Source: Candidatus Dormiibacterota bacterium (GTDB lineage Bacteria; Chloroflexota; Dormibacteria; Aeolococcales; Aeolococcaceae). From it: a stretch of 64,000 nt of DNA. The stretch covers positions 131,642 through 195,641 of the forward strand of contig CAWGML010000001.1 in the NCBI GenBank assembly GCA_963823765.1, written 5' to 3'. The translations under genes and the position numbers were made by a program. Of this stretch, positions 1,861-38,270 are shown piece after piece. The stretch's first letter is position 1. Every line of letters begins with the position of its first letter. Below the pieces are notes generated by a model. It was not told the origin of the DNA, did not search any database, and was given only the letters and a program-made list of their open reading frames with translations.

Positions 1861-1957
1861 CGATTGGTGATCCAGCGACATGGCGCGTTGGCACACCCGG
1901 CGTGATGCTCCTCGTCACGCGTTGCCGCGCGTGGGATGAGGAGGTCCAAGCGACCGG

Positions 1958-3073: not shown

Positions 3074-3077
3074 CACG

Positions 3078-4337
3078 TCAGCGCGCCTGGTGCTGGAGCT
3101 CGCTCAGCTTGGCCATCAAGGGGGCTGAGGCCGGCTCGCTCCAATCCGGTGTGAGGATCCCGTACCAGTCCGGACGGCTCGGTTGGCCGGACACGCCGGC
3201 GGGCCGGTCACCGTTCAGCGGCCAGTATGCCCAGCTCACCTGCAACTCCTTCATGTAGTCGACCAGGTAGCTGAACCACCGCCCCTGGTTGTTCGGCGAG
3301 TCAGCGTCGGTGAACACGTGCGGCGCGGTGTCGTCGCCGGGACGAAACCCGTTGGGGGTACCGAATTCGCCGACGTAGACGGGAGCGAGGCCCTGCTTGA
3401 CGATGAAGCCCCAGGCCTGGTCCCAGACCGAGCGACAGGCGGCAGCTGTTTCAGCTGTGGTGTTCGGTTGGCACCAGGGCATCTGCGCGTGCATGTCGGG
3501 ACCGTAGTCGTGGACGGAGTACACCAGGCGCCCGGGGATCGACAGCGTGATGTGGCGCGGCGCGCGTCGTCGTCCGCCGCTGTGTGCAACCCCGCACAGG
3601 TTCCCGCCCGGCCAGTACAGGTGGCGCTCTCCGGCGAGGAAGGGACCACTCGGGTCACCGCGCACGCCCTCGACAAAGACCAGCAGGTTCGGGTTCACCT
3701 CGAGCACCTGGTTGCCGCCTCTCTCGGCGGCGGCAGCCCAGTCGCGCGGCCAGCGCGTCCAGGGCCGATCCGGTTGTCCCCATACAGCGCCACCGTTAGC
3801 GGGGAACTGGTTCGGGTCGATGGCAGGAGATCCGGGTTCGTTGCGCAGGTCGATGCCGATCACGGTGTCGTCGTCCTTGAAGCGGCCCGCCATGAACCGC
3901 AGGGAGCGCAGCCACTCCGCCTCGCCGAACGCGTCCGAGTACCAGAGCCCGTTCTCCTGCGCACTCCAGCCTGCGGTCGAGCGGTGGTTGTCGAGCACCA
4001 CACGCAGGCCGTGCCTTCCGACGGCGCTGATCACCCCGTCCAGGATGTCGAGCGCAGGCGCGCCGTTGAATTCAGGGTTCGCGGAGACCTCTTCGGTGAT
4101 CGGCGGATTCTCGAACACCAGCTGGTCGCAGAACGGCAGGCGGATGTGGTTGAAGCCAAGCGCCGCGACCATCTCGCAGAGGTCGTCGACGGTTCTCACG
4201 TCCAGTCCCCCCGCCACCATCGAGGCGGACTCGAAGCCGTACCAGTTGACGCCGGTCAGCCGGACGGTGGCTCCGTCGCGGTCGACGATCCTCGACCCCT
4301 CTGCGTGCAGGTATCCGGGGGTTAGGAGCGTTGTCAT
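3078..4337 (-). CDS. glycoside hydrolase family 5 (cellulase-like), no signal peptide
   Basis: Internal ATG (MTTLLTPGYLHAEG) of the 3078..4604 ORF. GH5 motifs present: VNWYGFES, FNHIRLPF, VVLDNHRS, IDLRNEP (acid/base Glu) and VYVGEFG (nucleophile Glu). Confidence 0.85.
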   Translation of the reverse strand: MTTLLTPGYLHAEGSRIVDRDGATVRLTGVNWYGFESASMVAGGLDVRTVDDLCEMVAALGFNHIRLPFCDQLVFENPPITEEVSANPEFNGAPALDILDGVISAVGRHGLRVVLDNHRSTAGWSAQENGLWYSDAFGEAEWLRSLRFMAGRFKDDDTVIGIDLRNEPGSPAIDPNQFPANGGAVWGQPDRPWTRWPRDWAAAAERGGNQVLEVNPNLLVFVEGVRGDPSGPFLAGERHLYWPGGNLCGVAHSGGRRRAPRHITLSIPGRLVYSVHDYGPDMHAQMPWCQPNTTAETAAACRSVWDQAWGFIVKQGLAPVYVGEFGTPNGFRPGDDTAPHVFTDADSPNNQGRWFSYLVDYMKELQVSWAYWPLNGDRPAGVSGQPSRPDWYGILTPDWSEPASAPLMAKLSELQHQAR

Positions 4338-4684
4338 CACGCGGAACTCAGCCGGCCACAGCCGAGCCACTGGCGAAGCGGCTACGCAGGCTCCGAGCGC
4401 TTGGGGCGATCCGCGCCGCCGCGCCGTCTCCGTGTGCGCTTGGGATCGGGTCCGCTGACCTCCGTCCAGGCGTAGCCGGTGGCCACCGCTGTGTCGCGCC
4501 ATACCCGACCGCACCCGGGACAGGTCCAATCGGGTTGCACCGGCCGAGGCCCGGCGACAGCCATCAGCGGGGGCCGGCATGCATGTGCGCTCACGGCGTC
4601 GCATCGTACAGGGATCCTCGGCCTCGGCCGGTACCGTTTCTCGTCACGCGCCATACTCGGCTCCTCTACAGGGGGAGATCCGTG

Positions 4685-6721
4685 ATGTGGCGCCCGTGGT
4701 CGCTGTTGCTCGTGCTACCCCTCGTGGCCCTGGGAGCAGCCGACGCTGCCCCTGCCAGGGCAATGAGCCAGGGTGCCGTCACGCAGTACCTCACTCACAC
4801 AGCGGCAACGCGCACGAGCTCGGCGCCGCCGCCCGCGCCGCCACGCCTGGTGCAGCCCTCGCAGGGGCACGAGTTCGCCGGGTTGGGATCCACCGAGCAG
4901 TACGGCTCGGTCTTCTACAGCTACACGCCCGGTGAACCTGTATTGGCGGTGGGGCCGTCCGATGTCGTCGAGACCGTGAACGAGGCTGCCGGGGTGTTCG
5001 ACAAGAATGGCAACAGGTTGACAGAGCTCGACTTCGGCACTTTCTGGGGCGGCACAATCGCAAACCCCACGCAATGCACCGATCCGCGCGCGCTGTACAT
5101 CGCCAGCGTTGATCGCTTTGCCATCAGTTGCTCCGACATCAGCGGTGGTGCGGCGGAGCCCATGCGCTTTGCGATCTCCGCCTCCGGTGACCCCACTGGC
5201 CCGTGGTTCCGGTACGCGGCGCCGAACACCGGGTTCCTCGACCAGGACAAGATCGAGGCCACCTCGGACAAGTTCGTCATCGCAGGGAACACCAGCTCGA
5301 CCGAGGTCATGTACGTCTACAACCTGGCTGATGTTGTCGGGCACGCGAGCTCACCGCACGTGGTCAAGGTCACGGCCAAGAGATCGAACGTGTACCAGGC
5401 CGCGGTCCAGGAGACAGCCGCCGCTCCCGCGTACTTCGTCAGCTCGTTCCCCAACAACCTCCTGTACCTGGCGACCATCACCGGGACCCCGGCGGCGGCG
5501 AACGTGCACCTCTCCGAGGTCCACGTGCCCGCGGCCGACTTCGCGGCCCCTCACGATCCGCAGGTTCCCGGCGGGACCTTCGACGGCGGCGACGGGCGCG
5601 TGCTCGATGCCGTGTACGAGGTGGAGACGTCGGACTCCAAGCCTGTGATCCAGTACTCGAGCACCCGGTCGTGCGGACCTCGTGACTGTGTGACCAGCGC
5701 CCGCATCGACCTGTCCGGCACCAAGCCTCTGCTCGTCGGCGATGTCCTGGTCGGCTCACCGGGATGGGACTACACATATGGAGCTGTTGGTCTCGACGCG
5801 GCCGGCAACGTCATCGAAGCGTACACGCGGTCGAACTCCGTGACTGGGGCGGGAGCCGCCGTGGTCGGACCGGGCTTCGACGTGGACCTCCAAGCGCCAA
5901 CCTCGGGGACGTCCGTCTGTGACTCGCACGGCACGCCACCCTGTTACGAGCGGTGGGGCGACTACCTCGGCACCGCGGTGGATCCGAGCGACCCCACCAG
6001 CGTGTGGGTCTCCGGCCTGTACCAGGCGTCGGGCGGTCCTTTCGGGTGGGAGACGGTCATCGCGCGTGTCTCGACGACCACGTACTCACTTGCCACGGCG
6101 AGCACGGGTGCAGCCGGCACGCTGAAGGCGACCTCGGCGAAGGTGAGTGGTTCGGTCAACCCAGGCGGCATGTCGACCACGTACCACTTCGACTACGGCC
6201 TGACCACGGGGTACGATGCTTCGACGCCGGAGGTCTCCGCGGGCTCGGGGACCGCGGGAGTGCCGGTGTCGGCGACGCTGACCGGCCTGCAGGCGGGGAC
6301 CCTGTACCACTACCGCCTGGTGGCGACCACCGCTGCCGGGCGCGCCATCGGGGCGGACCGCACCTTCACGACGAAGGGTCCAAAGATCACCTCGGTCGCC
6401 TTCACAGGCACTCCGTCGGCTCCCACCGTGACCGTCACGGGCAAGAACTTCGGCAGCGAGCCCGCCGGTTCGCCGGCCGGCTGCAACGACAGCGGCCAGG
6501 ACTTCGGCACCGCCCTGCTCTTCACCGAGACCACGCAGCAGTGGACGGCCGGCCAGTCCGGCGACTGCATCGGCCTGGTGGTCAGCTCGTACTCTGCGAC
6601 GCGGGTCGTCTTCACGTTCGGGTCCGACTACAGCAACTTCGGGCCCGTGACCTCGGGGGACGGCTATATGGTCTCCGTGGTCGGAGCCACCAAGAGTGGC
6701 ACGGTCGCGTACACATCCTGA
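4685..6721 (+). CDS. secreted protein: propeller/sialidase-like N-terminal region plus FN3-like and Ig-like C-terminal domains
   Basis: Signal peptide MWRPWSLLLVLPLVALGAADAAPARA. The N-terminal ~430 aa are paralogous to 17953..19813, sharing DPRALY..DRFAIS, DPTGPW and C..RWGDY. The C-terminus has the FN3-like segment STTYHFDYGLTTGYD...LQAGTLYHYRLVA. Confidence 0.7.
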   Translation: MWRPWSLLLVLPLVALGAADAAPARAMSQGAVTQYLTHTAATRTSSAPPPAPPRLVQPSQGHEFAGLGSTEQYGSVFYSYTPGEPVLAVGPSDVVETVNEAAGVFDKNGNRLTELDFGTFWGGTIANPTQCTDPRALYIASVDRFAISCSDISGGAAEPMRFAISASGDPTGPWFRYAAPNTGFLDQDKIEATSDKFVIAGNTSSTEVMYVYNLADVVGHASSPHVVKVTAKRSNVYQAAVQETAAAPAYFVSSFPNNLLYLATITGTPAAANVHLSEVHVPAADFAAPHDPQVPGGTFDGGDGRVLDAVYEVETSDSKPVIQYSSTRSCGPRDCVTSARIDLSGTKPLLVGDVLVGSPGWDYTYGAVGLDAAGNVIEAYTRSNSVTGAGAAVVGPGFDVDLQAPTSGTSVCDSHGTPPCYERWGDYLGTAVDPSDPTSVWVSGLYQASGGPFGWETVIARVSTTTYSLATASTGAAGTLKATSAKVSGSVNPGGMSTTYHFDYGLTTGYDASTPEVSAGSGTAGVPVSATLTGLQAGTLYHYRLVATTAAGRAIGADRTFTTKGPKITSVAFTGTPSAPTVTVTGKNFGSEPAGSPAGCNDSGQDFGTALLFTETTQQWTAGQSGDCIGLVVSSYSATRVVFTFGSDYSNFGPVTSGDGYMVSVVGATKSGTVAYTS

Positions 6722-6926: not shown

Positions 6927-7424
6927 ATGCGCCAGCGCTCCGGCGTAGGCGTCGTCCCCGAGGGACGCGCCACCGACGATGCGGACAGAACCGCATTCCG
7001 TCGACGGATATCGAGACGCGACCTCTTTGTCGGGGCTGCCACCGCCGCCGCCGCAGTGCCGCCGCTCTTCGCGATGCCGCTCGTCATCGCACACGCCAGC
7101 AGCTCGGCACCGACCATGACCAAGTCCGAGTTCGCGTCATTGGTCGGCACCGACTTCCGCTTCGCCGTGGGCGCAGGCCGCAGCGTCGCCTGCCGGCTGG
7201 AGAGCGTCACCGACCTGCCTGTCCCGCCTCGGTCGCCCGCCCCGGCGCCGGGGGGTGAGGCCTTCACGCTGGTCTTTGTCAGGGCGCAGCGACTTGGCTT
7301 CGGACAGGGCACGTACACGGTCTCCCATCACGGGTTGGGATCATTTCCACTTCTCGTCGTGCCGATCGGTTCGGCGTCGGCAGCGCACCGCTGCGAAGCG
7401 GTGGTGAACAGGCTGTGGTCATGA
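6927..7424 (+). CDS. Tat-signal small secreted protein, accessory protein A1 of the tail-collar operon
   Basis: Twin-arginine signal ISRRDLFVGAATAAAAVPPLFAMPLVIAHA followed by a ~105-aa domain. That domain is paralogous to 7933..8262 (FRFAV..ACRLESV..FTLVF..LLVVPI versus FTVRT..AAELVEV..FSLIF..LFLVPV). Confidence 0.6.
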   Translation: MRQRSGVGVVPEGRATDDADRTAFRRRISRRDLFVGAATAAAAVPPLFAMPLVIAHASSSAPTMTKSEFASLVGTDFRFAVGAGRSVACRLESVTDLPVPPRSPAPAPGGEAFTLVFVRAQRLGFGQGTYTVSHHGLGSFPLLVVPIGSASAAHRCEAVVNRLWS

Positions 7425-7936
7425 GCCAGGCGACGATCAGCCTGCGGCCGGTCGGGGGGCAGGACGACGCCTTCCTTCGCGATGTGTACGCCGCAACCCG
7501 TGCGGAGGAGATGGCGCTCGTCGATTGGCCCGCCACCACCAAGGAAGCATTCCTCGCCATGCAGTTCGACGCCCAGGCCCGCTCCTACCGCGCCAACCAT
7601 CCCGACGCCGACTACTGCCTCGTGCTCGTCGACGGGACACCGGCAGGCCGGCTGTACGTCGAGCGCCGCGCCCACGTGATCCTGCTCCTCGACATCGCGC
7701 TGCTGGCATCGCACCGCAACCGAGGCCTCGGCACGCGGTTGGTCGCGGCTCTGCTCGAGGAGGGCGCCGCGAGGCGCGTTCCGGTGCGACTCCACGTGGA
7801 CCGCCTCAACGAGCACGCACTGGCGATCTACCGCCGCCTGGGCTTTCGCACAGTCGGCGATGGCGACGTGCACCTCCTCATGGAGTGGGCGCCCGCGACC
7901 GCCGCACGGCGCCCGCTCGCGAGCGTCGTGGCATGA
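7421..7936 (+). CDS. GNAT family N-acetyltransferase
   Basis: The ATG overlaps the upstream stop (ATGA at 7421-7424). The acetyl-CoA binding core reads LLLDIALLASHRNRGLGTRLVAALLEEGAARRVPVRLHV...NEHALAIYRRLGF. Confidence 0.85.
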   Translation: MSQATISLRPVGGQDDAFLRDVYAATRAEEMALVDWPATTKEAFLAMQFDAQARSYRANHPDADYCLVLVDGTPAGRLYVERRAHVILLLDIALLASHRNRGLGTRLVAALLEEGAARRVPVRLHVDRLNEHALAIYRRLGFRTVGDGDVHLLMEWAPATAARRPLASVVA

Positions 7937-8262
7937 CACTCGAGACGCCGGTCGCCGCCGCCGGAAAAGGCGCGTTCACCGCCCATCTCCGCTCGATGTT
8001 CACTGTCCGAACCGGCCCGGAGACAACCGTGGCCGCGGAGTTGGTCGAGGTGCTGGACCGCCCCGCGGTGCGGGGGTACGAACAGTTCTCCTTGATCTTC
8101 CGTACACCGAGCGCGACAGCGCCGACGCAGCGCATCTACGAGGTTGCTCACCCGGAGCTGGGACGCCTCGCGCTCTTCCTGGTCCCCGTCCGGCGACACG
8201 TGGATGGCCTCTACTTCGAAGCCGCGTTCAGCCTCGCGACATCACCCACAGCCGAGGGTTGA
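7933..8262 (+). CDS. small protein, accessory protein A2 (signal-less paralogue of 6927..7424)
   Basis: The ATG overlaps the GNAT stop (ATGA at 7933-7936). It is 109 aa and aligns by eye with the mature part of the first gene of the operon. Confidence 0.6.
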   Translation: MTLETPVAAAGKGAFTAHLRSMFTVRTGPETTVAAELVEVLDRPAVRGYEQFSLIFRTPSATAPTQRIYEVAHPELGRLALFLVPVRRHVDGLYFEAAFSLATSPTAEG

Positions 8263-8266
8263 CGAC

Positions 8267-8764
8267 ATGGACCCATATATCGGTGAGATCCGCATGTTCG
8301 CCGGCAACTTCGCTCCGGCGGACTGGGCGTTGTGCGATGGATCACTGCTTCCGATCTCCCAATATGACGCGCTTTTCAGCCTCATCGGCACCACGTACGG
8401 CGGTGACGGGCAGACAACGTTCGCACTCCCCAATCTCCTCGGCCGCGTGCCCGTGCACCAGACCACCGGCTTCGCCCTCGGGCAGACGGCGGGCTCGGAG
8501 GAGGTGACGCTGACGCAGGCGCAGCTGCCGTCGCACTCGCACATTCCCCAGGCCGCCCGGACCAACCAGGGCGTCAACGCGCCCGGCGGGAAGGTCTGGG
8601 CGGCGAGTCCCACGTACAGTGAATACGGGCCGACGCCGGACAGCTCGATGGGCGCGCAGGCGCTGGCCTCGACGGGGGGCGGCCAGCCTCATGACAACAT
8701 GGTTCCCTTCCTGGCCGTCAACTTCATCATGGCGCTCTTCGGCATCTACCCGAGCCAGAATTGA
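8267..8764 (+). CDS. phage tail collar domain protein (MdpB-type), paralogue 1
   Basis: 165 aa reading MDPYIGEIRMFAGNFAPADWALCDGSLLPISQYDALFSLIGTTYGGDGQTTFALPNLLGR. It has HSH at 8534-8542 and the C-terminal segment GGGQPHDNMVPFLAVNFIMALFGIYPSQN. No signal peptide. Confidence 0.9.
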   Translation: MDPYIGEIRMFAGNFAPADWALCDGSLLPISQYDALFSLIGTTYGGDGQTTFALPNLLGRVPVHQTTGFALGQTAGSEEVTLTQAQLPSHSHIPQAARTNQGVNAPGGKVWAASPTYSEYGPTPDSSMGAQALASTGGGQPHDNMVPFLAVNFIMALFGIYPSQN

Positions 8765-8776
8765 TTGTGATGAGCA

Positions 8777-9274
8777 ATGTCTGAGCCCTTCATCGGCGAG
8801 GTGCGCATCTACAGCTTCGGATTCGCGCCAAGGGGCTGGGCGTCGTGCGCAGGGCAGCTGCTGCCGATCAACCAGAACCAGGCACTGTTCGCCATCCTGG
8901 GCACCACGTACGGCGGCAACGGGATCCAAACATTCGCGCTGCCGGACCTCCGGGGGCGCATCCCGGTCCACGTGGGCTCGGGCGTCGTCTTGGGCCAGAG
9001 GGGCGGCGAATCCGCTCATACCCTGTCACTGTCCGAGTTGCCCGGACACGGCCACGTGCCCGCGGCAAGCGTGGCAGCAGCCGACGTCGGCTCACCGGCG
9101 GGCAATATATGGGCACAGCAGGCGTACCCGGCATTCGCGGCGACGCCGGACACGGCGATGTCGCCCGCGGCCATCCTCGCGACGGGGGGAGGCCAACCCC
9201 ACGAGAACATGTCGCCGTACCTCGTGCTCAACATCTGCATCGCCTTGGTGGGCATCTTCCCGAGCCAGAATTGA
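8777..9274 (+). CDS. phage tail collar domain protein (MdpB-type), paralogue 2
   Basis: 165 aa reading PFIGEVRIYSFGFAPRGWASCAGQLLPINQNQALFAILGTTYGGNGIQTFALPDLRGR. It has HGH at 9047-9055 and GGGQPHENMSPYL. No signal peptide. Confidence 0.9.
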   Translation: MSEPFIGEVRIYSFGFAPRGWASCAGQLLPINQNQALFAILGTTYGGNGIQTFALPDLRGRIPVHVGSGVVLGQRGGESAHTLSLSELPGHGHVPAASVAAADVGSPAGNIWAQQAYPAFAATPDTAMSPAAILATGGGQPHENMSPYLVLNICIALVGIFPSQN

Positions 9275-9298
9275 GCAGACACTGAGGATCCACACGCC

Positions 9299-9826
9299 AT
9301 GGACCCCTTCCTCGCCGAGATCCGCATCTTCTCCGGCAACTTCGCGCCCAGGGGGTGGGCCAGGTGCGACGGGCAGATACTGCCCATCGCGCAGAACACT
9401 GCCCTGTTCTCGCTCCTGGGCACGACGTACGGCGGCGACGGCGTCAGCACCTTCGCGCTCCCCGACCTGCAAGGGAGTGCCCCTCTGCAGCAGGGCCAGG
9501 GCGCCGGGCTCACCCAGCGATTCCTCGGTGAGGTGGGCGGTGAGCAGGCAGTCTCCGTGATCCAGAGCGAGATGTCACCGCACTCTCACTCGGCACAGGC
9601 CGCAGCCAATGCCAACGGCGCGTCGACGGACCCGACCAACCAGGTGTGGTCCAAGAGCTCGTACATCCGCTCCCAGGTGCCGCTGTACAAGGCGAGCGGT
9701 GACTTCTCCATGAGCCCCAACGCGGTGTCCCAGGCAGGGGCCGGCCAACCGCACAACAACATGATGCCCTACCTCGCGATCACGTTCATCATCGCCCTCC
9801 AGGGCATCTACCCGACGCATCCATGA
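9299..9826 (+). CDS. phage tail collar domain protein (MdpB-type), paralogue 3
   Basis: 175 aa reading MDPFLAEIRIFSGNFAPRGWARCDGQILPIAQNTALFSLLGTTYGGDGVSTFALPDLQG. It has HSH at 9581-9589 and GAGQPHNNMMPYL. No signal peptide. Confidence 0.9.
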   Translation: MDPFLAEIRIFSGNFAPRGWARCDGQILPIAQNTALFSLLGTTYGGDGVSTFALPDLQGSAPLQQGQGAGLTQRFLGEVGGEQAVSVIQSEMSPHSHSAQAAANANGASTDPTNQVWSKSSYIRSQVPLYKASGDFSMSPNAVSQAGAGQPHNNMMPYLAITFIIALQGIYPTHP

Positions 9827-11799
9827 ACGGCGCGCGGAACACCGTCAAGGTCGATGTCCGCGGCGTGGGGGTGAGGACCGGAGGTCGGTCTGCGCGCCCG
9901 TGGACGCGCCCGCTGCGACTCGTCGCCACCGTGATGGCCGGGGCTGTGCTCGCAGCCAGCCTCTTCGGCGTGCTCTCGCCGATCATGCGAGTTGCCGCGT
10001 TCGGGTACGCGGTCGACGAGACCGCGGATGAAGGCCTGCTGGTGCCGGCCAGCGTGGTATGCGTCACCGCCAGCGCCCACTGCAGCCTTCGCGCCGCCGT
10101 CGAGGCCAGCAACAATCTCGGCGGAGCGAACACCATCAGCGTGCCGGCGGGGACGTACAACCTCTCCTCGGCCCTCGGTGAGCTGCAGGTCGGCCCCAAC
10201 GGCGGCATGAGCGTCAGCATCACTGGGGCGGGCGCGGCGGTCACGGTCATCAACGCCGTCCAACCCAGCTCGTGCACGGCGTCGACGACGAGCAGCTGCT
10301 TCCGGGTGTTCGACATCGACCCCAACGTCAATGGTGGCGTGGGGTTCACCGCCAGCGACGTCACCATCTCGGGAGGACGCACCGGGGAGGTCGGCGGCGC
10401 CGGGATCATCAACGGCACGGGCACGGCCGCGCAGACCGATGACACCACCACGTTGAACAACTGCGCCGTCAGCGACAACGTCACGTACTCGGGTTCCGGC
10501 GGTCCGGTTCCCGGCGGCGGCCTGGTCCAGACGTACGGAAGTGTCGGGATCACCAACTGCGTCTTCTCGAACAACACGTCCAGCCTCGTCGGCGGCGCCG
10601 TCGACATGGAAGCGCCCGCCGGCGGCGGAAGCCCCTCTCTGTCGATCAGCAACTCCAGCTTCACAGGCAACGCAGCCACCATCGGTGGCGGTGTCAACAT
10701 CGCCAACACCGTCACCGGGACGATCAGCGACTCCACCTTCACAGCCAACACGTCGACCGGAAATGGCGGCGGTGCGATCGGGGTCGACAGCGGTTCCATG
10801 ACCCTGACCGACGACACGTTCACGGCCAACCAGGCGCTGAACACAGCCAACGGTGGCGCGGTGTACACCGGCGGAGGGACGACCGCCATCAGTTACAGCC
10901 GGATCTACAACAACACGGCAGCCTCGGGGACCGCGCAGGTCTTCAACAACGTCTCCGGTGCGGCGACCACTGCCGAGAACGACTGGTGGGGGGTCAACAG
11001 CGGGCCGGGCAGCGGGATCAGCAACTTCATCGTGAGCGCATGGCAGGTGCTGACGAGCGTGGCATCGCCGAACCCGATCCTGGTCAACCAGAGCTCGACC
11101 ATCACGGCCAGCCTCGACACGACCAACCTCGGCGGCTCGATAGCGCCGGCGCACCACCTGCCTGACGGGATCCCTGTGGGCTTCGCCGACGGCGCTCTCG
11201 GAACTGTCTCTCCCCACGCCGCCAGCCTGACTGGTGGAGATGCCGCCACCACCTACACCGCCGGCGGCGCCGGAGGGATCGACAGCGTTCCGACAACGGT
11301 GGACGCGCAGACGGTGGGCGGGTCGATCACGATCACCTTCCCGAGCCAGATCACCGCCACGAACACCTCCTGCGGGGCGTTCGCCGGGGACGAGGCGAGC
11401 AGCCTTGCGCAGGTGCGCTACACGGTCCATCGGGGGGTGATCCAGCACGTCCTCAACGACGACTTCCGGTACTGGGCCGCGCTGCCCTCAGCCGGCGGCA
11501 CCCAGGCGTTCGACATCGTGCAGTCGACCAGTGAGGCGAGCAATCCATTCACCGCGCACGGCACTGCCTTCAACGGCGCCTGCAAGCGGCTTCCCACCAC
11601 GGTGAGCCAATCCGCGAACACGGTCACCATCACCGTCAAGGGACCCGTCGCGGGCGGCCCGGTGTACATCGTGCTCACGTTCTTCCCGTCGAGCGTCATC
11701 GGTGAGCCCCGTCCCACACCCGACACGACGGTCACGTACACGATCAGCACCTCGGGGCATCCGAGCTCGAGCAGCGCGATCGACCTCGTCAAGCGGTAA
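9823..11799 (+). CDS. secreted or membrane-anchored CSLREA-motif protein with right-handed parallel beta-helix repeats
   Basis: The ATG overlaps the upstream stop (ATGA at 9823-9826). The N-terminal hydrophobic anchor reads LRLVATVMAGAVLAASLFGVL. The CSLREA-type motif reads HCSLRAAVEASNNLGGANTI. Many G-G-A/N-x-T/S beta-helix rungs follow (VSDN, FSNN, FTGN, FTAN). Confidence 0.8.
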   Translation: MNGARNTVKVDVRGVGVRTGGRSARPWTRPLRLVATVMAGAVLAASLFGVLSPIMRVAAFGYAVDETADEGLLVPASVVCVTASAHCSLRAAVEASNNLGGANTISVPAGTYNLSSALGELQVGPNGGMSVSITGAGAAVTVINAVQPSSCTASTTSSCFRVFDIDPNVNGGVGFTASDVTISGGRTGEVGGAGIINGTGTAAQTDDTTTLNNCAVSDNVTYSGSGGPVPGGGLVQTYGSVGITNCVFSNNTSSLVGGAVDMEAPAGGGSPSLSISNSSFTGNAATIGGGVNIANTVTGTISDSTFTANTSTGNGGGAIGVDSGSMTLTDDTFTANQALNTANGGAVYTGGGTTAISYSRIYNNTAASGTAQVFNNVSGAATTAENDWWGVNSGPGSGISNFIVSAWQVLTSVASPNPILVNQSSTITASLDTTNLGGSIAPAHHLPDGIPVGFADGALGTVSPHAASLTGGDAATTYTAGGAGGIDSVPTTVDAQTVGGSITITFPSQITATNTSCGAFAGDEASSLAQVRYTVHRGVIQHVLNDDFRYWAALPSAGGTQAFDIVQSTSEASNPFTAHGTAFNGACKRLPTTVSQSANTVTITVKGPVAGGPVYIVLTFFPSSVIGEPRPTPDTTVTYTISTSGHPSSSSAIDLVKR

Positions 11800-13236: not shown

Positions 13237-13315
13237 CGGTGTCCTCAGCGTGTTCCCGAGCGGGCGTGCTTAAGCGTAGCGCCGCGGACGGCTGCCGTCG
13301 ACGATCGCCTGCTCC

Positions 13316-14225
13316 TCAACTCCAGTAGATGAGCAGGTTGAAGGCGGGTCCGTTGCCCATCGCGGTCCCGTCCTGCTGGGTGACCGCCCACTGGTCGGTG
13401 GGGCTGGCCAGGTAGCTGATTCCGCTCGGTGCGGTGTCGTACACACCCCCCAGGTACGCGGGATCGAAGTTGGGGGTGTCGAAGATGATCGCATTGGGAT
13501 TGCCGTTGGTCCGGGCGTTGCTGATGATCGAGTTGCTCCCGCTGCCGAAGCCGGTCTGCTGGATGACCGCCTTCCCACCATTGCTCTTCCCCGCGCCGAC
13601 CATGACGTTGAAGCGCGCGCCCACGGGCATCGCGGTCGTGTCCTCGTTGAAGATCGCAGCCCGGTTGTTCGCGAACGTGACGCCCACCGTGTGGTTGAGG
13701 ATCTGCAGGCCGCCAGTGGTGACAAAGGTGACCTGGAGCAGGGCGTTCGGCTTGCCATTCGTCTGCTTGGAGTCGATCGTCGGTGCTGTCGCCGCTCGTG
13801 TTTGCGGAGGTGGACGTCTGGATGAAGACGTCAGCGTTGGGATGCGGCACCACCAGGACGTTGAACTGCGCACCGATGGGGATGTTCGATTCGTCCTCGT
13901 TGACGATCGCCCATCTGTCACCTCCGAAGAGGCCGTAGATCACCCCGATGGGAGAGGTGTCCTCCACGCACCCGCACACGCCTCCAGGTGTGTCGTTCGA
14001 AGTCACGAACAACATCGCGTTCGGCAGGCCGTTGACAGCGCCGTTGTCGAGGCTGGTGACGAACGACGAGGTGTTCGACGAGGTCGCTGTCCAGATGAAA
14101 TGGGAGGTCACTGTCACGCTGGCCGATGCCGGGGGCGACCACAAGAGCGCCGGCCCCAGTGAGGCAGCCGTGATGAGCAGCGCCACCCCCAGGCGGATGC
14201 TTCGATGAGAGCTTCGACCGTCCAT
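13316..14225 (-). CDS. secreted protein with three tandem ~90-aa repeats (lectin-like); frame broken once near 13782
   Basis: Signal peptide MDGRSSHRSIRLGVALLITAASLGPALLWSPPASA. The repeats share NG.PNA..., WAI.NED...P.GA.FNV. The N-terminal part lies in the frame of ORF 13245..14981 and the C-terminal part in ORF 13316..13921. Confidence 0.65.
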
Positions 14226-14322
14226 CTCTGGCCTCCTTGCGCTTGCGTGCTCGCGGCCTGGGCAAGCCGCCGACGAAGCCTGGCGCCCCGATTCTGCGCC
14301 GCGTCGGGGCCGCTTGGAAGCC

Positions 14323-15051: not shown

Positions 15052-15142
15052 GCTCGCTGACGACCCCTCCCTGGCTCTGAACGATTCGACGCGATCATGG
15101 CGTTCACCGCCCGGGGGAGTCAAGCGCGGCGGGCGCGGCGGC

Positions 15143-17811: not shown

Positions 17812-17952
17812 GCACCGAAGAGTACGGAGGTATGGGCACCACGGGAGCCGCTCGACGCTGACGAGGCCGGCGCGTCATAGTTCACCCCGGTGTGGGTGGA
17901 TAGGTTCCACGCCCGACGCTTCAGTCGTCAGCAACATGGGGAGGCAGCTTCA

Positions 17953-19813
17953 GTGCGCCATCGCAGCTATCGGCGGCGACATCTCGCCGCATTGACATCG
18001 GGGATCGCCATCCTGGGGGCGGTCGCCACGGGACTGACCAGCCAGCAACCGGCGCGTGCCAGCACCGCGCCGTCCAAGGTGACGTTCACCTCGCAGCGGG
18101 CCGATGCCGACGTCGTGGCGCACTACACCGTCACACCCGCGTCGCGCGCGGCCGTTCCTCCGGCCACCAGCTCGAGCAACAGCGGCAGCCAGGACCAGCT
18201 CCCTGACCGCAACCCGAAGGGCCCGGGCAGTGACAACGCAGCCCGGACATCGGGGTCCGCCGCCACCACCGCCATCTCGAAGGGCGCCGGTAGCACGGCG
18301 CGGCTCGCTGCCAGCTTCATGGGCCAGCAGGGGTCGAACACCACCTGTTCGTACTTTGCGCAGGGCTGCAACCCTCCCGACCAGGGCCTGGCCGCGTCCC
18401 CGAACTTCGTCCTCCAGGGGGTCAACACCCAGTGGGAGGTGCTCAGTCCCTCCGGGCAGGTGCAGTCGGGGTTCCCCGTCTCTGGACAGGCATTCTTCGG
18501 GGTGCCGAATGTGACCGGCGCCAACGGCCAGCCCTGTGATGTCAGCCACGGCAGCCAGCCTTTCCTCAGCGATCCGCGCGCCGTGTACGACACCCTCGAC
18601 CACCGCTTCATCGCGTCCATGCTCCAGGTGGAGAACGGCCTCGGCATCGCTCCGGACTGCGTCTTCAAGTCGGTGTACTACATCGCGGTGAGCCAGACGA
18701 ACGACCCGACGGGCTCGTGGAACGTCTACGAGTTCGACATGTCCGATGGCAGCACCTACGCCGCCGACTACACGCAGATCGGCTTCAACGGGCAGGCGGT
18801 GTTCTTCTCCGCGAACATGTTCAACTCAGCCGGTCCGGGCTTCTACGCCGAGGTGTTCGAGGCCAACCTCTCCCAGATGGAGAAGGGCACGGACAACTTC
18901 GTGGCCGACGGCTTCCGGCACATCCAGGGCACGGGCCCCGGCACCAACCAGAACACCGGTCCGTTCCTCGCTGACACGGTCCAGCCCGTCCAGACCATCC
19001 AGGGCACCGGTTCCTCGCCCGGCGGCATCTCCTCGACCGGCGTCTTCGTGTCCACCGACGACGGCCCGGACCTGCTCAACGGGCACTTCTGCAGCAGCGC
19101 GGCCGATGCCTGCCGGGGTCTGATCGTGTGGAACATGAGCAACCCAGCTGGCGCATGACAACGGTGGCCAGGCGCCCACCTTCACTGGGACGTATCTCGC
19201 GGACACGCAGCCGTTCTTCTTCCCGCCCGCGGCCGACGAGCCCACCTGCCGCGCCTGCGTGGACGCGTTCGACCTGCGCATCTCCGCAACCCCGGTCCTC
19301 AGGAACAACACCATCTACGCGGCTTGGGAGACAGGGCTCGACAACGGGACGCACGTGGTGCCCGCCATCGAGTGGGCGCAGACGCGCGCCTTCCCGGCCG
19401 ACGATGCGACGGTGACCAGCAACTACTTCGGCTTCTCGGGGGACACCGCGGCCAGCTACCCGGCGCTGATGCCCGACAACGAGGGCAACGTGGTCATGGT
19501 GTACGAGCGCATGGGCCACACCATCAACCCGGAGACGCGGTACACCGTGCGCGATGCCGGCAGCGCCAACTTCACCTCCGAGGGGCGGCTGCTGCACGCG
19601 GGACAGGCCTCCTACAGGCCCAGGCTGTGCGGCACGTCGACGCTTCCCGTGTGCCGCTGGGGCGACTTCGAGGCGACGTCGTTCGACGGGAGTGGACGCA
19701 TCTGGTTCGCAGGTGAGTACACCAACAGCCACACCGACCCCAACCGGGGGCCTTGGTTCGGCCGCAACTGGAGCACCTGGATCGGCGCGGTCGACGCCAA
19801 CGAGGCCAGCTGA
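17953..19813 (+). CDS. secreted propeller/sialidase-like protein (paralogue of 4685..6721); frame broken near 19139-19156
   Basis: GTG at 17953 follows a GGGGAGG Shine-Dalgarno. Signal region RRRHLAALTSGIAILGAVATGLTSQQPARA. The protein continues after ..VWNMSNP in the frame of ORF 19259..19813 (..LAHDNGGQAPTFTGTYL..CRWGDFEATSFDG). Confidence 0.7.
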
Positions 19814-20949: not shown

Positions 20950-22062
20950 TCAGACGGTCGGGTACCCAGCGGGTGGGACGGGCGCGGGACCGGTTCCCCG
21001 CTTGAACGCGCATCCACCCGTGCCGCCGTTGGCCTCGTTGCTCCACAACGGCTGGACGGCGAACATCTGGCTGCCGAATGGCAGGTCGGTGACGTTGAAA
21101 TACGCGCACTTGTCGCCGTTCTCCGACTGCGAGGCGTCGTTCCAGCCGTCCTGGTAGGGGAAGGTGTCCGGGTCGGTCACCGCCTCGGCGTACTCGTGGC
21201 CGGACGCCTCGCTGTACGGGTCCATGTAACCGTGGCCGAACGCGTCGTCCGTACGGTACCCGTAGTTGGCGCCACAGCCAGCTCCCTGTTCGGGGACGTA
21301 GGGCAGGAACGCGTACTTGAGACCGTTGCCGCCGACATTGGCGATCTCATTGTGGTAGGCGCAGTACACGGTGCCGTACGCGGTGGCCGTGGTGCCCGGA
21401 GGCGTGTACACGAACACGGTCGCGTCGGGGTCGATCGCCTTGGGGTTGAAATGAGTCGCGGCCTTCATCGCCTCCTGTGCGATGGGGTCCTGCGTGACCT
21501 GCTCGGCGAGACCGCTGGTGACGATGGCCGCCGGGACTGGGCTGGGGTCGATCCACACGCCCGCGAGGACCTTCCTCGTGTTGGTGACGTAGTGCGCGTA
21601 GGCGTTGCCTGCGCATGACGTGCTGCCGGAGCCGATGTTGTCGCAGTACTGGGTCTGCAGGCCGTTGTACTTGGTGCCGCCCATGCCCGCGAAGAAATCG
21701 TTGACATATGTCATCGCCTGCACATTGGTGTAGGTGAGCTGCGAGGTCGTGCTCGTCTGCGTGAAGCCGTTCTGCCAGGCGGCGCCCCAGTAGACGATGT
21801 ACACCTTGGGATGGTGCTCGACGGCGCCGGTGTGGAAGATCAGGTCGCTGGATGCCTCCTGCGGGGTGGGGGTGTTGGCGCGAGCCGCCGGGGGTGCGCC
21901 CGCGTTCGTCCAGAGGATGTGTGGCGCGCCCACCTGGGGCGTCGCCGCGCTTGCCGACACTGACAGCGCGCCCTGTGTGGCGCCGAGCACCAGCCCGGCA
22001 GTCACGGAGACCAGGGCGAGCCCGCGAAGTGCCCGTCGTTGGGCAGGGACGTGCGTGACCAC
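20950..22062 (-). CDS. secreted hypothetical protein
   Basis: 370 aa with a GTG start. Signal peptide LRGLALVSVTAGLVLGATQGALSVSASA. Distinctive motifs: KVYIVYWGAAWQ, YCAYHN, SGHEYAEAVTDP, WNDASQSENGDKC. No family recognised. Confidence 0.65.
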   Translation of the reverse strand: MVTHVPAQRRALRGLALVSVTAGLVLGATQGALSVSASAATPQVGAPHILWTNAGAPPAARANTPTPQEASSDLIFHTGAVEHHPKVYIVYWGAAWQNGFTQTSTTSQLTYTNVQAMTYVNDFFAGMGGTKYNGLQTQYCDNIGSGSTSCAGNAYAHYVTNTRKVLAGVWIDPSPVPAAIVTSGLAEQVTQDPIAQEAMKAATHFNPKAIDPDATVFVYTPPGTTATAYGTVYCAYHNEIANVGGNGLKYAFLPYVPEQGAGCGANYGYRTDDAFGHGYMDPYSEASGHEYAEAVTDPDTFPYQDGWNDASQSENGDKCAYFNVTDLPFGSQMFAVQPLWSNEANGGTGGCAFKRGTGPAPVPPAGYPTV

Positions 22063-22177
22063 AGTTCGGATGCCTCCATTCAGAGAGACGCGGACGTGGT
22101 GTCCACGTGCCTATCCGAACGTCTCCACGCCGAGAAACTTGCGGTGGGCCTCCGGGGCGCCCCCGATCGGCCTGGAG

Positions 22178-22486: not shown

Positions 22487-24246
22487 ATGAGAGGCAAGCA
22501 CGTGCTGACCAACCCCGGCGCTGGGCCCGTTCGCCGCACCACCTCCATCGCAGCCCTGTCCGCGGTGCTGATGGCGGTGAGCCTCGCCGTCCCGGCGGGC
22601 GCGAGCGCGACTCCGCCGGCCACCATCGCTGTCCCGTCCCTCGACTCCGCCCCGGTCGGCATCGCGGCCGGCCCGGGTGGAACGATGTGGTTCGTCGAGA
22701 ACACCGGGTTCGCCGTGGGACGGGTGGATTCCGCCGGGCACCTGACCGAGTTCGCCGTGCCCGCGAACTCGGCGGGGTCCCATGGATCACTCAACTCGAT
22801 CACTGCCGGCCCGGACGGCGCGATGTGGTTCACCGATGAGTCGTCCGCAAACCCGCGGGTGGGACGCATCGACCCTGCGAGCGGCGCCATGACCATGTAC
22901 GAGCTGCCCACGGGCGCCGGGGCCTTTGCCGGGGCGCAACCCCTGCAGATCACGGCCGGGTCCGACGGAGCCCTCTGGTTCACCGGGTTCTTCGGTTCAG
23001 TCATCGGCCGTGTCGACGTCGCCGGTCACTTCACCGCGTACCCGCTGCGCAGGGGAGGTGACGTGCGCGGGATCACCGCCGGCCCGGACGGCGCCATCTG
23101 GTTCACCCAGGTGACCCCTGACGCCGTCGGCCGGCTTGACCCAACCACCGGAGCCGTCGTTCTGCACAAGGTCCACTCTCCGCTGGGGACGGCCGCCCCG
23201 ATCGGGATCGCCACCGGTCCGGACGGTGACCTGTGGTTCACCGAGTTCGGGCACCAGCGACATCGGCCGGCTCGACCCCGTCACCGGACACATCGCCACC
23301 ATCAAGACGCCCACCCCGGACGCCGTGCCGCTCGGGATCGTGAGCGGCCCGGACGGTGGCGTGTGGTTCACCGAGGGCGCGGCCGGGAACGTCGGCCGCA
23401 TCGATCCGGCCACGCGCAAGGTCCGGGAGTTTCCCCTGGGCAGCGCGCTCGCCGCGCCGATGCGCCTCGCCGTCGGCGCCGATCACGCGCTGTGGATCAG
23501 CGAGACCGGAGCCGACCTCATCGGCCGGGTCGACCCGGCGAACCCGCCAAGCGGGCCGGCGAACGTCCCCGTCGCTCCCGGTGTGGTCGCGCCCCCGTTT
23601 GCCGACCGGTGCCCGGCCGGCCGGCTGTGCATCACCCAGGTCACCACCGGCGGTTCGCTGACCATCAAGAGCTTCTCGCAGCAGCTGCCGCCGGGCGCCA
23701 TCCGGTTGACCGGGTATCCGTCCTTCCCACCCAACCCGGACGGGTCGCTGACCCTGCACCCGCCGGTGGTCGGCCAGGAGCTGGAGTTCGCAGCCGGTGC
23801 CGGTTTCGGGCGGGCTGCTGGGGACGATTCCTCTGCTCGGGCCCATCGTCGGGCCCGTTGTCGGACCCGCCAACGATCTCTCCGTGAGCCTCACCCTGGC
23901 CGGGCCGGTCCACCTGACTCTCACCCCCCTGGGCGCCACCGTCCCGGTGACGCTGCACCTCAACAACGTCCTGCTCGGGACCAATTGCACGATCGGGCCG
24001 GTGATCCAGCACCTCCTGATCAGCCCCACCGCCGCCGGCCAGGCCGATCCGCCGATGAGCTGGTCCCCGACCCCGGTGGAGGCACGCGACAACACCTTCA
24101 GCGTCCCGGGCGCCCAGGGGTGCGGTGCCATCCCGGCCGTCTTCGACCCGGTGATCGACCTGCAGCTCGGACTGCCGTCGAGCTCGGGCAACAACGCGGC
24201 CGACCTGCCCGCGGTGCTGAGCCAGGGGAGCGGGGTGCACCCCTGA
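22487..24246 (+). CDS. secreted Vgb-like (virginiamycin B lyase-type) beta-propeller repeat protein; two frame breaks (23243-23249, 23784-23790)
   Basis: Signal region IAALSAVLMAVSLAVPAGASA. Repeats read GI.AGPDG..WFTE....IGR.D seven or more times. The reading passes from ORF 22487..23887 to ORF 23136..24320 and then to ORF 23797..24246. Confidence 0.75.
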
Positions 24247-24372
24247 TCGTTGGCGGGAGCTCGCCGCGCAAGCAAATCCCGTTGGTGCTCGTTATAGGTG
24301 GTGCGGGGAAGCCAAAATAGCGCCCTCGCCATCGGGTGAACGACAGAAGCGGTACGGAAGGATGGGGTGGAG

Positions 24373-26090
24373 ATGAAGCTCCTGCATCGGCGCGAGATGG
24401 TGCTCGCGGGCGTCGCGATCGCAGCGTTCAGCCTCAGCGGATTGATGGCGGCCCCGCCGCAGGTCGCAGCCGCGGCCACGAGCGACGACCCCGGCTTCAC
24501 GCTGGCTGACGTCGGCCCGTTCGGCGGGGAGCCCTCCTTGGTCTCCGACAACAAGGGCGTCCTGTACGACAGCACCCCGAGCGGCGGGGTCCTCGTGTAC
24601 AAGTCGACGACCCACGGGAAGACGTGGACGCAGACCACCACGCCCGACCCCAACAGCGGTGACACGTGTCTCGCCACCGACCAGTCCAACGCGCTGTACG
24701 CGTGCAACCTGGCGGGGAGCGAGGGGTCGCTGCCGCTGCAGGCCGACGTCTGGAAGTCCACCGACCACGGCACCACCTGGACACACGGCACCAGCGCCGT
24801 CCCGCAGTGTGGCAGCACCAGCTGCAACCCCCTGGGCGTCGACCGGCAGTGGACGGACGCGTCGACCCCACGGGCGGCACGACCAGGAACGCCGAGGTCG
24901 TGCTCATGTACCACGACTTCTACGGGCCCAGCCAGATCTGGGTGAACATCTCCCACGACGGCGGGGCCACGTTCGGCGCTCCTCAGGAGGTGCTGGCAGG
25001 GCCGGCGATCACGCCGGGCGCCGTGACCGGGACCCTCGTCGCCCAGGGCTACACGTTCTGCAACACGGTCCCGGCCCAGGTGAAGATCGTGCGCCCCGGC
25101 CTGCCTCACGCCGGGCGCATCTACGTCGCGTGGATCGCCGCCGACCTGGCGCAGAACGCCACCGGGTGCAACATCAGCATGCTCCAGTCCTTCCACACCC
25201 TGTGGGTGTCGTACTCGGACGACGACGGCGTCACCTGGACACCGCAGCAGGCGTTCGACGCTGGTGTCGGTCACGACGCCTCGACCCCCTTCGTCGGGTT
25301 CACCCTCGACAACCAGGGCAACCCGTACTTCGGCTTCGCGAACAAAACCTCAACGCCAACCCGGCGACCTGCGCAGCAGAATCGACGGCTGGAACCGTCC
25401 AGTCAGACCCGTCGTGTGAGTACAACATGTACGTGGTCTGGTCGCACGACGGTGGCGCCACGTGGGACGGCGGCGGCGGCACCGTGCCGGGCAGTGCCAA
25501 GACGCCCCTACCTGGCAAGTCCCGTCAAGCAGACCGGCACGGACTTCTTCCCGGCCATCGCCGCGGGGGACCCGGGCAGCGTGGCCGTCTCGTACCTGCA
25601 CACGTCCGAGATCCTGCCCACCGACCCGTTCGGCAAGGCCGACCCGGGCGGCTGCGCCGGCCCCGGCCCGGGCAACGGCAACCCGCCCACCTATCCACCG
25701 ACCTGCCAGTGGTACCTCATCGCGTCGCAGACGCGCAGCCTGACACGTGGCCCGGTGAAGGCCGACTGGGAGACAGCCAGGGTCACCAAGACACCGATGC
25801 ACATCGGGGACATCTGCAACCTCGGGATCGCCTGCGTGGCGCCGACCTCCAACCGCAACCTCCTCGACTTCATCTCCGAGACCCTGGATCCACGCGGGTG
25901 CAGCCACATCGCCTACGCGGACGACAACACCATCAACAAGCTCCGCATCGCCAACCAGACGTCGGGCCCGTGCCTGGTCAAGGCGCCGCTCCCCGCGGTC
26001 CAGAGCGCCGGCTTCGAGCCGCTGCCCCTGGTCGGCGGCCTCGCCCTCTGCGCCATCGGCTTCGGCCGCCGGCGCCGCAGGCCGACTTAG
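24373..26090 (+). pseudogene. BNR/sialidase-like secreted protein with a PEP-CTERM-like tail; three frame breaks (about 24855-24865, 25341-25348, 25505-25508)
   Basis: Signal peptide MKLLHRREMVLAGVAIAAFSLSGLMAAPPQVAAAA. BNR-like motifs STTHGKTW, STDHGTTW, SHDGGATF, SDDDGVTW and SHDGGATW are spread over three reading frames. Two of the breaks behave as deletions and none lies on the GAGTTC motif. It may therefore be a genuine pseudogene. Confidence 0.6.
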
Positions 26091-38175: not shown

Positions 38176-38270
38176 CAGAACTTCTCCGGGAACAGCATCG
38201 CGATGACGAGGTACGCGGTGGCGACGAACGCGATGATGCCGGCGACGACGAAGCCGGTCAGGTCGTTCAC
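38175..38270 (-). CDS. kdpF: potassium-transporting ATPase subunit KdpF (31 aa)
   Basis: GTG-start peptide VNDLTGFVVAGIIAFVATAYLVIAMLFPEKF with the typical YL..A...PE+F ending. Its stop shares one base with the kdpA ATG. Confidence 0.7.
   Translation of the reverse strand: MNDLTGFVVAGIIAFVATAYLVIAMLFPEKF

Follow-up and report, generated by a model that had tools for sequence, protein, structure and literature searches.

In the 64,000-nucleotide stretch of the Candidatus Dormiibacterota contig CAWGML010000001.1 that we analysed (hereafter the window), seven tightly packed genes at positions 6927 to 11799 encode two proteins of the family DUF6916, a GNAT N-acetyltransferase, three collar-type fibre-tip proteins and a large beta-helix surface protein. 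Comparison with other genomes revealed that a collar triplet with a dedicated GNAT, with or without DUF6916, is a conserved unit that recurs across phyla. Tentatively, and with a confidence that falls somewhat short of an even chance, we read the locus as one instance of a widespread non-viral cassette for a heterotrimeric binding module, which would descend from phage fibre tips, would be exported by the twin-arginine translocation (Tat) pathway and would work together with a surface adhesin. The seven open reading frames (ORFs), all of which lie on the + strand and start with ATG, are the following:

6927..7424, + strand: D1, DUF6916 protein of 165 aa with an N-terminal twin-arginine (Tat) signal peptide (PF21880, E 5e-18, residues 64-159)
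7421..7936, + strand: dedicated GNAT N-acetyltransferase of 171 aa (PF00583, E 8e-14); its start overlaps the D1 stop (ATGA)
7933..8262, + strand: D2, signal-less DUF6916 protein of 109 aa, paralogue of D1 (PF21880, E 3.5e-22)
8267..8764, + strand: C1, collar-type fibre-tip protein of 165 aa, orthologue line 1, no signal peptide (PF07484, E 5e-30)
8777..9274, + strand: C2, collar-type fibre-tip protein of 165 aa, orthologue line 2 (PF07484, E 2.7e-26)
9299..9826, + strand: C3, collar-type fibre-tip protein of 175 aa, orthologue line 3 (PF07484, E 1e-27)
9823..11799, + strand: variable partner, signal-anchored beta-helix/Ig protein of 658 aa (AlphaFold2 model); its start overlaps the C3 stop

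Start and stop codons overlap as ATGA at 7421-7424, 7933-7936 and 9823-9826, the remaining intergenic gaps measure 4, 12 and 24 nt, and the GC content at third codon positions of the cassette genes (0.82-0.87) is consistent with coding sequence. A scan for promoters and terminators, which is uninformative at this GC content, gave no terminator-like site on the + strand inside the block. The Pfam E-values for the DUF6916, GNAT and collar genes are far beyond chance, and they confirm what a first-pass annotation of the same stretch had proposed, namely a small Tat-signal protein, a GNAT, a signal-less paralogue of the first protein and three collar-domain proteins; the coordinates, overlaps and gaps that it gave for the seven packed genes could likewise be verified on the sequence. 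An exact-sequence look-up showed that neither the beta-helix protein nor C2 is on record.

The distribution of the cassette became apparent when DUF6916 homologues were followed into other genomes. A first genome scan, based on a 10-sequence DUF6916 alignment and a single peptide pattern, returned 18 loci, which are biased to Acidobacteriota because only one pattern was used. About 25 loci from at least eight phyla contain three collar genes together with a dedicated GNAT and usually one or two DUF6916 genes, and a phmmer comparison of the seven window proteins with the six-frame ORFs of 22 loci identified three collars, one or two GNATs and one or two DUF6916 proteins in nearly all loci for which enough DNA was available. 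The hosts include Acidobacteriota (several families, among them the isolate Paracidobacterium acidisoli) and metagenome-assembled genomes of Phycisphaerae and Rhodothermales, and the arrangement of three collars, GNAT and DUF6916 is also present in three further metagenomic contigs. A tblastn search against plasmids yielded 81 records, mostly with exactly three adjacent matches. Replicons of Paenibacillus, Deinococcus ficus, Ruegeria sp. TM1040 and Aminobacter each harbor three genes annotated as "tail fiber protein" plus a GNAT, and in the Ruegeria and Aminobacter cassettes a protein of 91-97 aa belongs to DUF6916.

The identical seven-gene order was found on a metagenomic contig of 1.06 Mb (L001), where orn is located one gene further downstream. 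The KdpA of this contig is 97% identical to that of the window (36439-38277, - strand), and L001 represents a close relative of the window organism, probably within Candidatus Dormiibacterota. Proteins named "Candidatus Dormibacteraeota bacterium" share 90% identity with the window KdpA, and Ca. Dormibacteria follow as the next named group with 74%; judged by this single gene, the host probably belongs to Ca. Dormiibacterota and not, as the first-pass annotation had assumed, to Actinomycetota. Behind the cassette, homologues of the beta-helix gene are confined to L001 and, as a more distant match, L015. From this we conclude that the conserved unit is the collar triplet with its dedicated GNAT, usually accompanied by DUF6916, so that of the gene set put forward by the first-pass annotation the core recurs, while the slot of the CSLREA beta-helix protein varies.

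Several cassettes deviate in ways that we record here as observations. The proteobacterial cassettes share a protein of 405-494 aa, which is encoded between the collars and the GNAT (L025:8120-9337 in Ruegeria TM1040 and L027:9065-10549 in Aminobacter); the two copies are 27% identical (E 9e-29) and have no signal, and the Aminobacter copy is faintly FG-GAP/tectonin-like. On pDFI2 of Deinococcus ficus (L024:7081-8241), a gene for a periplasmic-binding-protein-like product with a Tat signal (TRRGLLKTLAALG...) occupies the position of DUF6916, and this product could be an alternative Tat-targeted partner. Collar genes also form arrays, with three complete tandem triplets (nine genes) in a 5.4-kb IMG/VR contig (L037) and two in L032:5633-8906, which might supply alternative specificities. 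For the two long IMG/VR contigs (L035 and L036), a phage-borne cassette was ruled out, since the phage part ends before an integrase and housekeeping genes, beyond which the cassette lies in the host flank.

The collar proteins are, as judged by their sequences, members of PF07484 that resemble the tips of gp12/gp37-type fibres, in line with the kinship to phage fibre tips noted at first pass. The window collars match the tail-protein family phrog_9116 along their full length (C1: E 1.8e-26, residues 6-157), C1 retrieves the long tail fibre 8kec (3.8e-7) and T4 gp12 from the PDB, and the collar profile aligns to the T4 gp12 fragment 1ocy with HxH on HKH and to the fibre 8kec with SHSH on SHQH. 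The HxH motif reads SHSH in C1, GHGH in C2 and PHSH in C3, and a second histidine motif, QPHxN, is present as QPHEN in C2 and QPHNN in C3. In the published gp12 structure, the histidine pairs of the HKH motifs from three chains bind a zinc ion on the threefold axis.

In a neighbour-joining tree of 66 collar sequences, three clades were obtained, each of which contains one gene per locus, whatever the phylum, and C1, C2 and C3 of the window fall into clades 1, 2 and 3, respectively; the gene order is usually 1-2-3 and at times 2-1-3. The three collars, which had been taken for mere paralogues, therefore represent three ancient orthologue lines, and because one member of each line is kept everywhere, we argue for an obligate 1:1:1 hetero-oligomer. 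Every clade retains the N-terminal collar, a P-H-x-H motif and a C-terminal block GGxQPHxNMxPY...G(I/V)(F/Y)P. The mean pairwise identity amounts to 0.65 for the collar and 0.59 for the C-terminus and drops to 0.21 for residues 96-134, a pattern of conserved ends and variable middle which would be expected of a base built from both ends and an exposed tip built from the middle. For Solibacter usitatus, diversifying (positive) selection on collar paralogues has been reported (PMC3174227). None of the approximately 60 collars inspected has a signal peptide, and all of them begin at the collar domain; those of the window do so at residues 2-6, comprise 165-175 aa, have no N-terminal shaft and are not accompanied by virion genes among the scanned ORFs. 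Taken together, C1, C2 and C3 probably form a putative 1:1:1 heterotrimeric, metal-stapled fibre tip.

The remaining conserved genes encode DUF6916 proteins and the GNAT. D1 starts with a Tat signal, read from the sequence without a predictor (RRRISRRDLFVGAATAAAAVPPLFAMPLVIAHA, that is RRRISRRDLF, a hydrophobic stretch and AHA), which fits an S/T-R-R-x-F-L-K-type motif followed by an h-region and an AxA cleavage site (ISRRDLFVGAATAAAAVPPLFAMPLVIAHA). Long-form DUF6916 proteins of this type (140-165 aa) with a twin-arginine signal occur in the window and in ten other loci from at least three phyla (L001; L002, L007, L009, L010, L011, L013, L014 and L015, which are Acidobacteriota or lookalikes; and the Phycisphaerae locus L008, in which the signal is degenerate, TRGEFL), and further DUF6916 representatives also have a Tat-type signal. 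The short form (about 100 aa, here D2) has no signal and was found fused to the C-terminus of the cassette GNAT (P0085, P0134, P0213 and L018:4275-5108 in an Alloacidobacterium locus). Gene fusion is a classic sign of two proteins acting together, and these fusions argue that GNAT and DUF6916 do so. In the GNAT itself an acetyl-CoA-type motif, RNRGLGT, is visible, and since the GNATs of cassettes in other phyla match it with E-values of 1e-25 to 1e-39, they constitute a dedicated subfamily; searches for its specificity gave weak matches only, to RimI, AAC(3) and N-terminal acetyltransferases.

DUF6916 is a large family, to which 9078 of 1.84 billion cluster representatives belong at E ≤ 1e-3, and we found no paper that mentions it. 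According to the AlphaFold2 model of D2 (pLDDT, i.e. predicted local distance difference test score, 84.5), it is a small all-beta domain. A DUF6916 sequence profile gave nothing below E 0.6 against the PDB; Foldseek reached a best E of 0.16 against the PDB, where the highest template modelling (TM) score among the top matches was about 0.47 (Psb28), and a best E of 0.011 against BFVD with TM scores below 0.47. Two side observations concern the same family: its weak recurring Foldseek matches to a phage "43 kDa tail protein" and to tail-tube-like domains, the scores of which are insignificant, and a protein of 237 aa (P0081) in which a Tat-like signal is followed by two tandem DUF6916 domains. 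The tandem domains and the tail-tube-like matches together hint at a ring-forming adaptor.

The seventh gene of the block belongs to a variable class of partners. Where enough flanking sequence is available, nearly every cassette borders on a large ORF, with lengths between 640 and more than 4000 aa, which bears out the proposed pairing of collars with a surface protein. These giant neighbours comprise an autotransporter with DUF7933 and immunoglobulin-like (Ig) repeats in Ruegeria, a Big_2 protein with SLH anchors in Paenibacillus, Big_9/cadherin proteins in Deinococcus, Phycisphaerae and L101, FG-GAP proteins with Big_3_5 in many Acidobacteriota as well as L100 and L102, a protein with eleven DUF7933 repeats and DUF11 in L011, and beta-helix proteins in the window, L001 and L015. 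Their architectures differ, and all of them are predicted to be extracellular. An all-against-all BLAST revealed that the giants share modules in mosaic fashion between phyla: an N-terminal Big_9/cadherin region is common to the giants of Deinococcus, Phycisphaerae and L002-type loci, and residues 309-511 of the 658-aa protein are similar to stretches inside the giants of L010 and L011. The beta-helix protein thus is one interchangeable occupant of a slot for giant surface proteins.

The 658-aa protein has a signal or anchor sequence at its N-terminus and is modelled by AlphaFold2 as a right-handed beta-helix at about residues 60-390 (pLDDT about 90, short three-strand rungs), followed by one or more Ig-like domains at about 400-505 and a poorly modelled C-terminal part. 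Its label as a CSLREA/beta-helix protein holds with regard to the fold, to a CSLRAAVEAS motif near the N-terminus alongside GGA...FxxN-type repeats, and to its homologues, which carry PF13229/PF02415 and one of which is named "CSLREA domain-containing protein"; it does not hold with regard to family models, since no Pfam or NCBIfam match was obtained even at E ≤ 10, including the CSLREA model TIGR04214, Beta_helix and Chlam_PMP. The orthologue in L001 is 81% identical and holds the same position. Foldseek matched the protein to tailspikes, pectin methylesterase, AlgE epimerases, rhombotarget A and Ig domains of invasin/intimin, all of them weakly, and the tailspikes (TM scores of 0.16-0.24) stand beside non-phage beta-helices. 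Because other folds score equally weakly, the former description as tailspike-like can be kept for a generic right-handed beta-helix only. The protein has no match in PHROG, no phage context in the window and no evident N-terminal tailspike adaptor.

How these parts might act together can be outlined as follows. In the cytoplasm, C1, C2 and C3 would associate at a ratio of 1:1:1 and give an intertwined trimer of about 55 kDa, the base of which would be formed by the conserved N-terminal collars and C-termini, while the six histidines of the three HxH motifs would hold an axial metal as in T4 gp12 and the hypervariable middle of each chain would form the distal, ligand-binding tip. The GNAT, recruited by cytoplasmic D2 (to which it is sometimes fused), would acetylate the complex or a partner, with D2 presenting the complex, or D1, to the enzyme. 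D1 would then bind the folded, signal-less trimer and carry the complex over the membrane by Tat "hitch-hiking", and outside the cell the module and the adjacent large surface protein would recognise polysaccharides or cell surfaces, resulting in adhesion or aggregation. Since the trimer would have to fold and intertwine in the cytoplasm and has no signal, and since the operon contains a Tat-targeted paralogue of the GNAT-linked protein, an escort by D1 and a link of D2 to the GNAT represent the simplest model. The piggy-back export by D1, for which we argue by analogy, is nevertheless doubtful in our view, and both the acetylation target of the GNAT and the binding function are held with less confidence than the heterotrimer.

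A number of points weigh against the exported heterotrimeric module. The oligomeric state, metal, acetylation target, localisation and ligand of the cassette proteins are inferred, and studies of the collar relatives RhiB and MrpB did not show export. The triplets L029, L038 and L039, which are derived from IMG/VR contigs, cluster by locus instead of by the three clades, which indicates that re-triplication or gene conversion also occurs. Moreover, cassettes differ in composition: in Ruegeria and Aminobacter, the signal-less short form is the sole DUF6916 and is joined by the additional 405-494-aa signal-less protein, the Deinococcus cassette contains a Tat-signal protein of the substrate-binding type in place of DUF6916, and near the Paenibacillus cassette DUF6916 was not found. 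Given these variants, export on the back of D1 through Tat cannot apply to all cassettes. For DUF6916, neither the PDB nor BFVD yielded a recognisable relative in fold that would point to a role as chaperone or carrier, and the giant neighbours are heterogeneous, with no single docking domain common to them in the all-against-all BLAST. Circumstantial support for a role in extracellular interactions is provided by a PF07484 protein of Ruegeria pomeroyi that is present in exoproteomes during co-culture with Synechococcus (PMC4949626), by a virophage collar trimer that binds cells and by the operons of RhiB and MrpB; in addition, COG4675 proteins have been detected in soil metaproteomes. A more far-reaching version, i.e. 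a phylum-spanning surface system in which an obligate A-B-C tip would be acetylated via a DUF6916 adaptor, escorted by Tat in a folded state and used to arm giant adhesins as a swappable specificity module, seems rather unlikely to us.

The same lack of signal peptides in the roughly 60 collars lends itself to another explanation, according to which the collar trimer stays cytoplasmic, where it might be an abundant protein that responds to stress or signals in the manner of RhiA/RhiB or MrpA/MrpB, the GNAT and D2 act on the trimer inside the cell, and the exported D1 and the surface protein are linked separately or only by regulation. The proteobacterial and Paenibacillus cassettes, which do without a signal-bearing DUF6916, would fit this explanation, as would the need of the GNAT for acetyl-CoA, which places at least some of the system's activity in the cytoplasm, and the identification of MrpA in a proteomic comparison of Microcystis wild type and mutant (PMC3328848). 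We nonetheless consider a purely intracellular module unlikely, since a hypervariable tip and positive selection are more in keeping with a recognition surface that is exposed, a Tat signal is present on a paralogue of the protein associated with the GNAT, the cassette consistently adjoins exported giants, and a PF07484 protein is present in a Ruegeria exoproteome.

If the large protein were instead a glycanase or epimerase, the cassette could serve the remodelling of envelope polysaccharides, with the GNAT acetylating a sugar precursor and the collar trimer acting as the glycan-targeting subunit. Pectin methylesterase, AlgE mannuronan epimerases and depolymerase tailspikes are indeed among the fold matches of the beta-helix, a GH5 cellulase and a glycosyltransferase are encoded 2-5 kb upstream, and the virophage collar heterotrimer bound Synechococcus cells, with docking suggesting a lipopolysaccharide receptor (PMC12724248). 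Most loci, however, have as partner a protein of the FG-GAP, Ig or cadherin type, which contains no enzyme-like domain, the GNAT fusions are to DUF6916 and not to sugar-nucleotide enzymes, and the loci compared have no conserved polysaccharide genes beside the cassette, which renders this explanation quite improbable.

Descent from a receptor-binding protein and a hypervariable tip would also be compatible with a fibre-only bacteriocin, that is a secreted trimer which binds and harms the envelopes of competitors, against which the GNAT or D2 would confer self-protection. GNATs are known as immunity proteins from some toxin systems, and the arrays of two or three triplets in L032 and L037 recall polymorphic specificity loci. 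Yet no member contains a toxin, pore-forming or lysis domain according to the Pfam, NCBIfam, PADLOC and PHROG scans, killing activity is not known for a collar of 165 aa with a tip alone, and the cassette is stably chromosomal, near orn in two related genomes; we therefore regard a bacteriocin as decidedly improbable. A decayed prophage or tailocin remnant without present function, which the homology of the collars to phage tail proteins and the location of some cassettes a few kb from prophage integrases in IMG/VR contigs might suggest, is effectively refuted and retains hardly any probability, considering that no phage family was detected in about 40 scanned window ORFs, that the seven ORFs are intact and have coupling overlaps, that the gene set and the three orthologue lines are kept in at least eight phyla, and that the cassette of L035 and L036 lies outside the integrase, beyond housekeeping genes. 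A known anti-phage defence system was rejected as a candidate, as the PADLOC-DB models gave 0 matches for all seven proteins.

With respect to the surroundings of the cassette, orn is located 59 nt downstream of the 658-aa gene (NF003765, E 9e-74), as expected from the first-pass annotation, whereas for the secreted "propeller" protein that it placed on the other flank only a weak FN3-like match was obtained, which does not confirm a propeller fold:

4331..6721, + strand: probable secreted protein of 796 aa, 205 nt upstream of D1 (weak FN3-like Pfam match); membership of the cassette uncertain

In L001, a 678-aa gene without a Pfam match holds the equivalent position, and a counterpart was not seen in loci other than the window and L001. 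The absence of phage genes from the window stood up to Pfam scans of about 40 larger ORFs spread over its 64 kb, among which no phage family was detected and about seven had no Pfam match. The matched ORFs encode a GH5 cellulase, a glycosyltransferase, kdpABC, kdpD with a response regulator, acyl-CoA dehydrogenases, transglutaminase/ATP-grasp proteins, BipA and a DEAD helicase; the glycosyltransferase (EryCIII-like/UDPGT) and the GH5 cellulase lie at 1940-4604, 2-5 kb 5' of the cassette. An ORF at 13316-13921 (- strand) with two DUF7452 stretches (E 7e-33) is situated among long ORFs that overlap on both strands (13245-15385). Furthermore, the window contains a run of Ser/Thr/Gly-rich, apparently secreted proteins between 17881 and 26090:

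17881..19158, + strand: Ser/Thr/Gly-rich protein
19139..19813, + strand: Ser/Thr/Gly-rich protein, weakly similar (26%, E 8e-4) to the 796-aa protein 5' of the cassette
20950..22110, - strand: Ser/Thr/Gly-rich protein
23752..24246, + strand: Ser/Thr/Gly-rich protein
24340..24945, + strand: Ser/Thr/Gly-rich protein
24663..26090, + strand: Ser/Thr/Gly-rich protein

The Pfam scan covered 17881-19158, 19139-19813, 20950-22110, 23752-24246 and 24663-26090, and none of the five had a match. The overlapping pairs that start at 17881 and 19139 and at 24340 and 24663 resemble single genes broken by a frameshift.

We rate the cassette as a domesticated fibre-tip module with a fixed partner set that has previously gone unnoticed in the searchable literature, although each component is familiar by itself. 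Many genomes contain stand-alone triplets annotated as "tail fiber protein" or MdpB, and we found no description of their function, partner set or localisation, nor of the cellular cassette itself, in the literature that could be searched; a partial experimental precedent for the cluster is the collar triplet of the virophage DSLV2 (PMC12724248). Recognition of a fixed cassette turns a vague annotation into a testable system, for which Ruegeria sp. TM1040, Deinococcus ficus, Paenibacillus, Aminobacter and Paracidobacterium acidisoli are tractable hosts. If the proposed module proves true, the heterotrimer principle of collars would be extended from a virophage to cellular genomes, and the export of a non-redox complex would be an unusual use of the Tat pathway. 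Only under the more far-reaching version given above would a three-chain tip offer three independently evolvable faces, DUF6916 represent a novel type of escort or adaptor that takes non-redox cargo through Tat, and MdpB-type triplets acquire a function. The cassette may also bear on the attachment of uncultured soil phyla such as Dormiibacterota and Acidobacteriota to particles or neighbours.

Among known systems, CSLREA/Pmp-repeat beta-helix surface proteins resemble the 658-aa protein in its CSLRAAVEAS motif, its GGA...FxxN-type repeats and its beta-helix model, from which the window protein departs by the missing family-model match and the added Ig-like domains. The proposed export has its parallel in Tat hitch-hikers, which are signal-less partners exported with a Tat-targeted subunit, such as the small and large subunits of hydrogenases and DmsAB. 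As suggested for the cassette, one small subunit of these complexes has the twin-arginine signal and the folded metal- or cofactor-containing partners have none; known hitch-hikers are redox enzymes, however, and the parallel between D1 and the collars is an analogy only.

Stand-alone collar proteins in non-phage operons, as in the window, are also represented by RhiB of the Rhizobium operon rhiABC and by MrpB of Microcystis, a "microcystin-dependent protein" (COG4675). Both operons are tied to host or cell-cell interaction: the rhi operon is quorum-regulated and implicated in nodulation, and MrpC is an extracellular pilin involved in cell-cell contact in Microcystis. Unlike the window cassette, rhiABC and mrpAB have no triplet, no GNAT and no DUF6916. 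RhiB matches the cassette collar profile only distantly (E 3e-12), RhiA and RhiC match neither collar nor DUF6916 and have no homologues in the window, and rhiABC was therefore rejected as the same system. The gp12/gp37 tips of T4 (PDB 1ocy, 1pdi and 5iv5; fibres 8kec and 9qgo) share with the window proteins the collar, the aligned HxH and a C-terminal segment that returns to the collar. A phage fibre consists of three identical long chains, which are attached to the baseplate by an N-terminal shaft, whereas the window proteins comprise 165-175 aa, start at the collar and represent three distinct chains.

The virophage DSLV2 offers the most direct counterpart to the triplet. Its three consecutive PF07484 proteins co-purify as a 1:1:1 complex of about 55 kDa, and this collar heterotrimer forms 16-nm fibres and binds Synechococcus cells (PMC12724248, J Virol 2025); the study makes no mention of cellular cassettes, GNATs or histidine motifs. 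In both the DSLV2/Aquatic Virophage 1 lineage and the window, three PF07484 genes of much the same size stand in a row on one strand (the virophage products add up to 58.3 kDa), and each of them encodes an N-terminal collar and a variable region or head. Direct evidence for a heterotrimer comes from DSLV2 only. While the virophage trio is encoded beside a (minor) capsid gene and decorates the capsid, the window cassette is located on a chromosome among orn and kdp genes and no virion genes, and it adds to the triplet a GNAT, DUF6916 proteins, one of them Tat-targeted, and a large surface protein.

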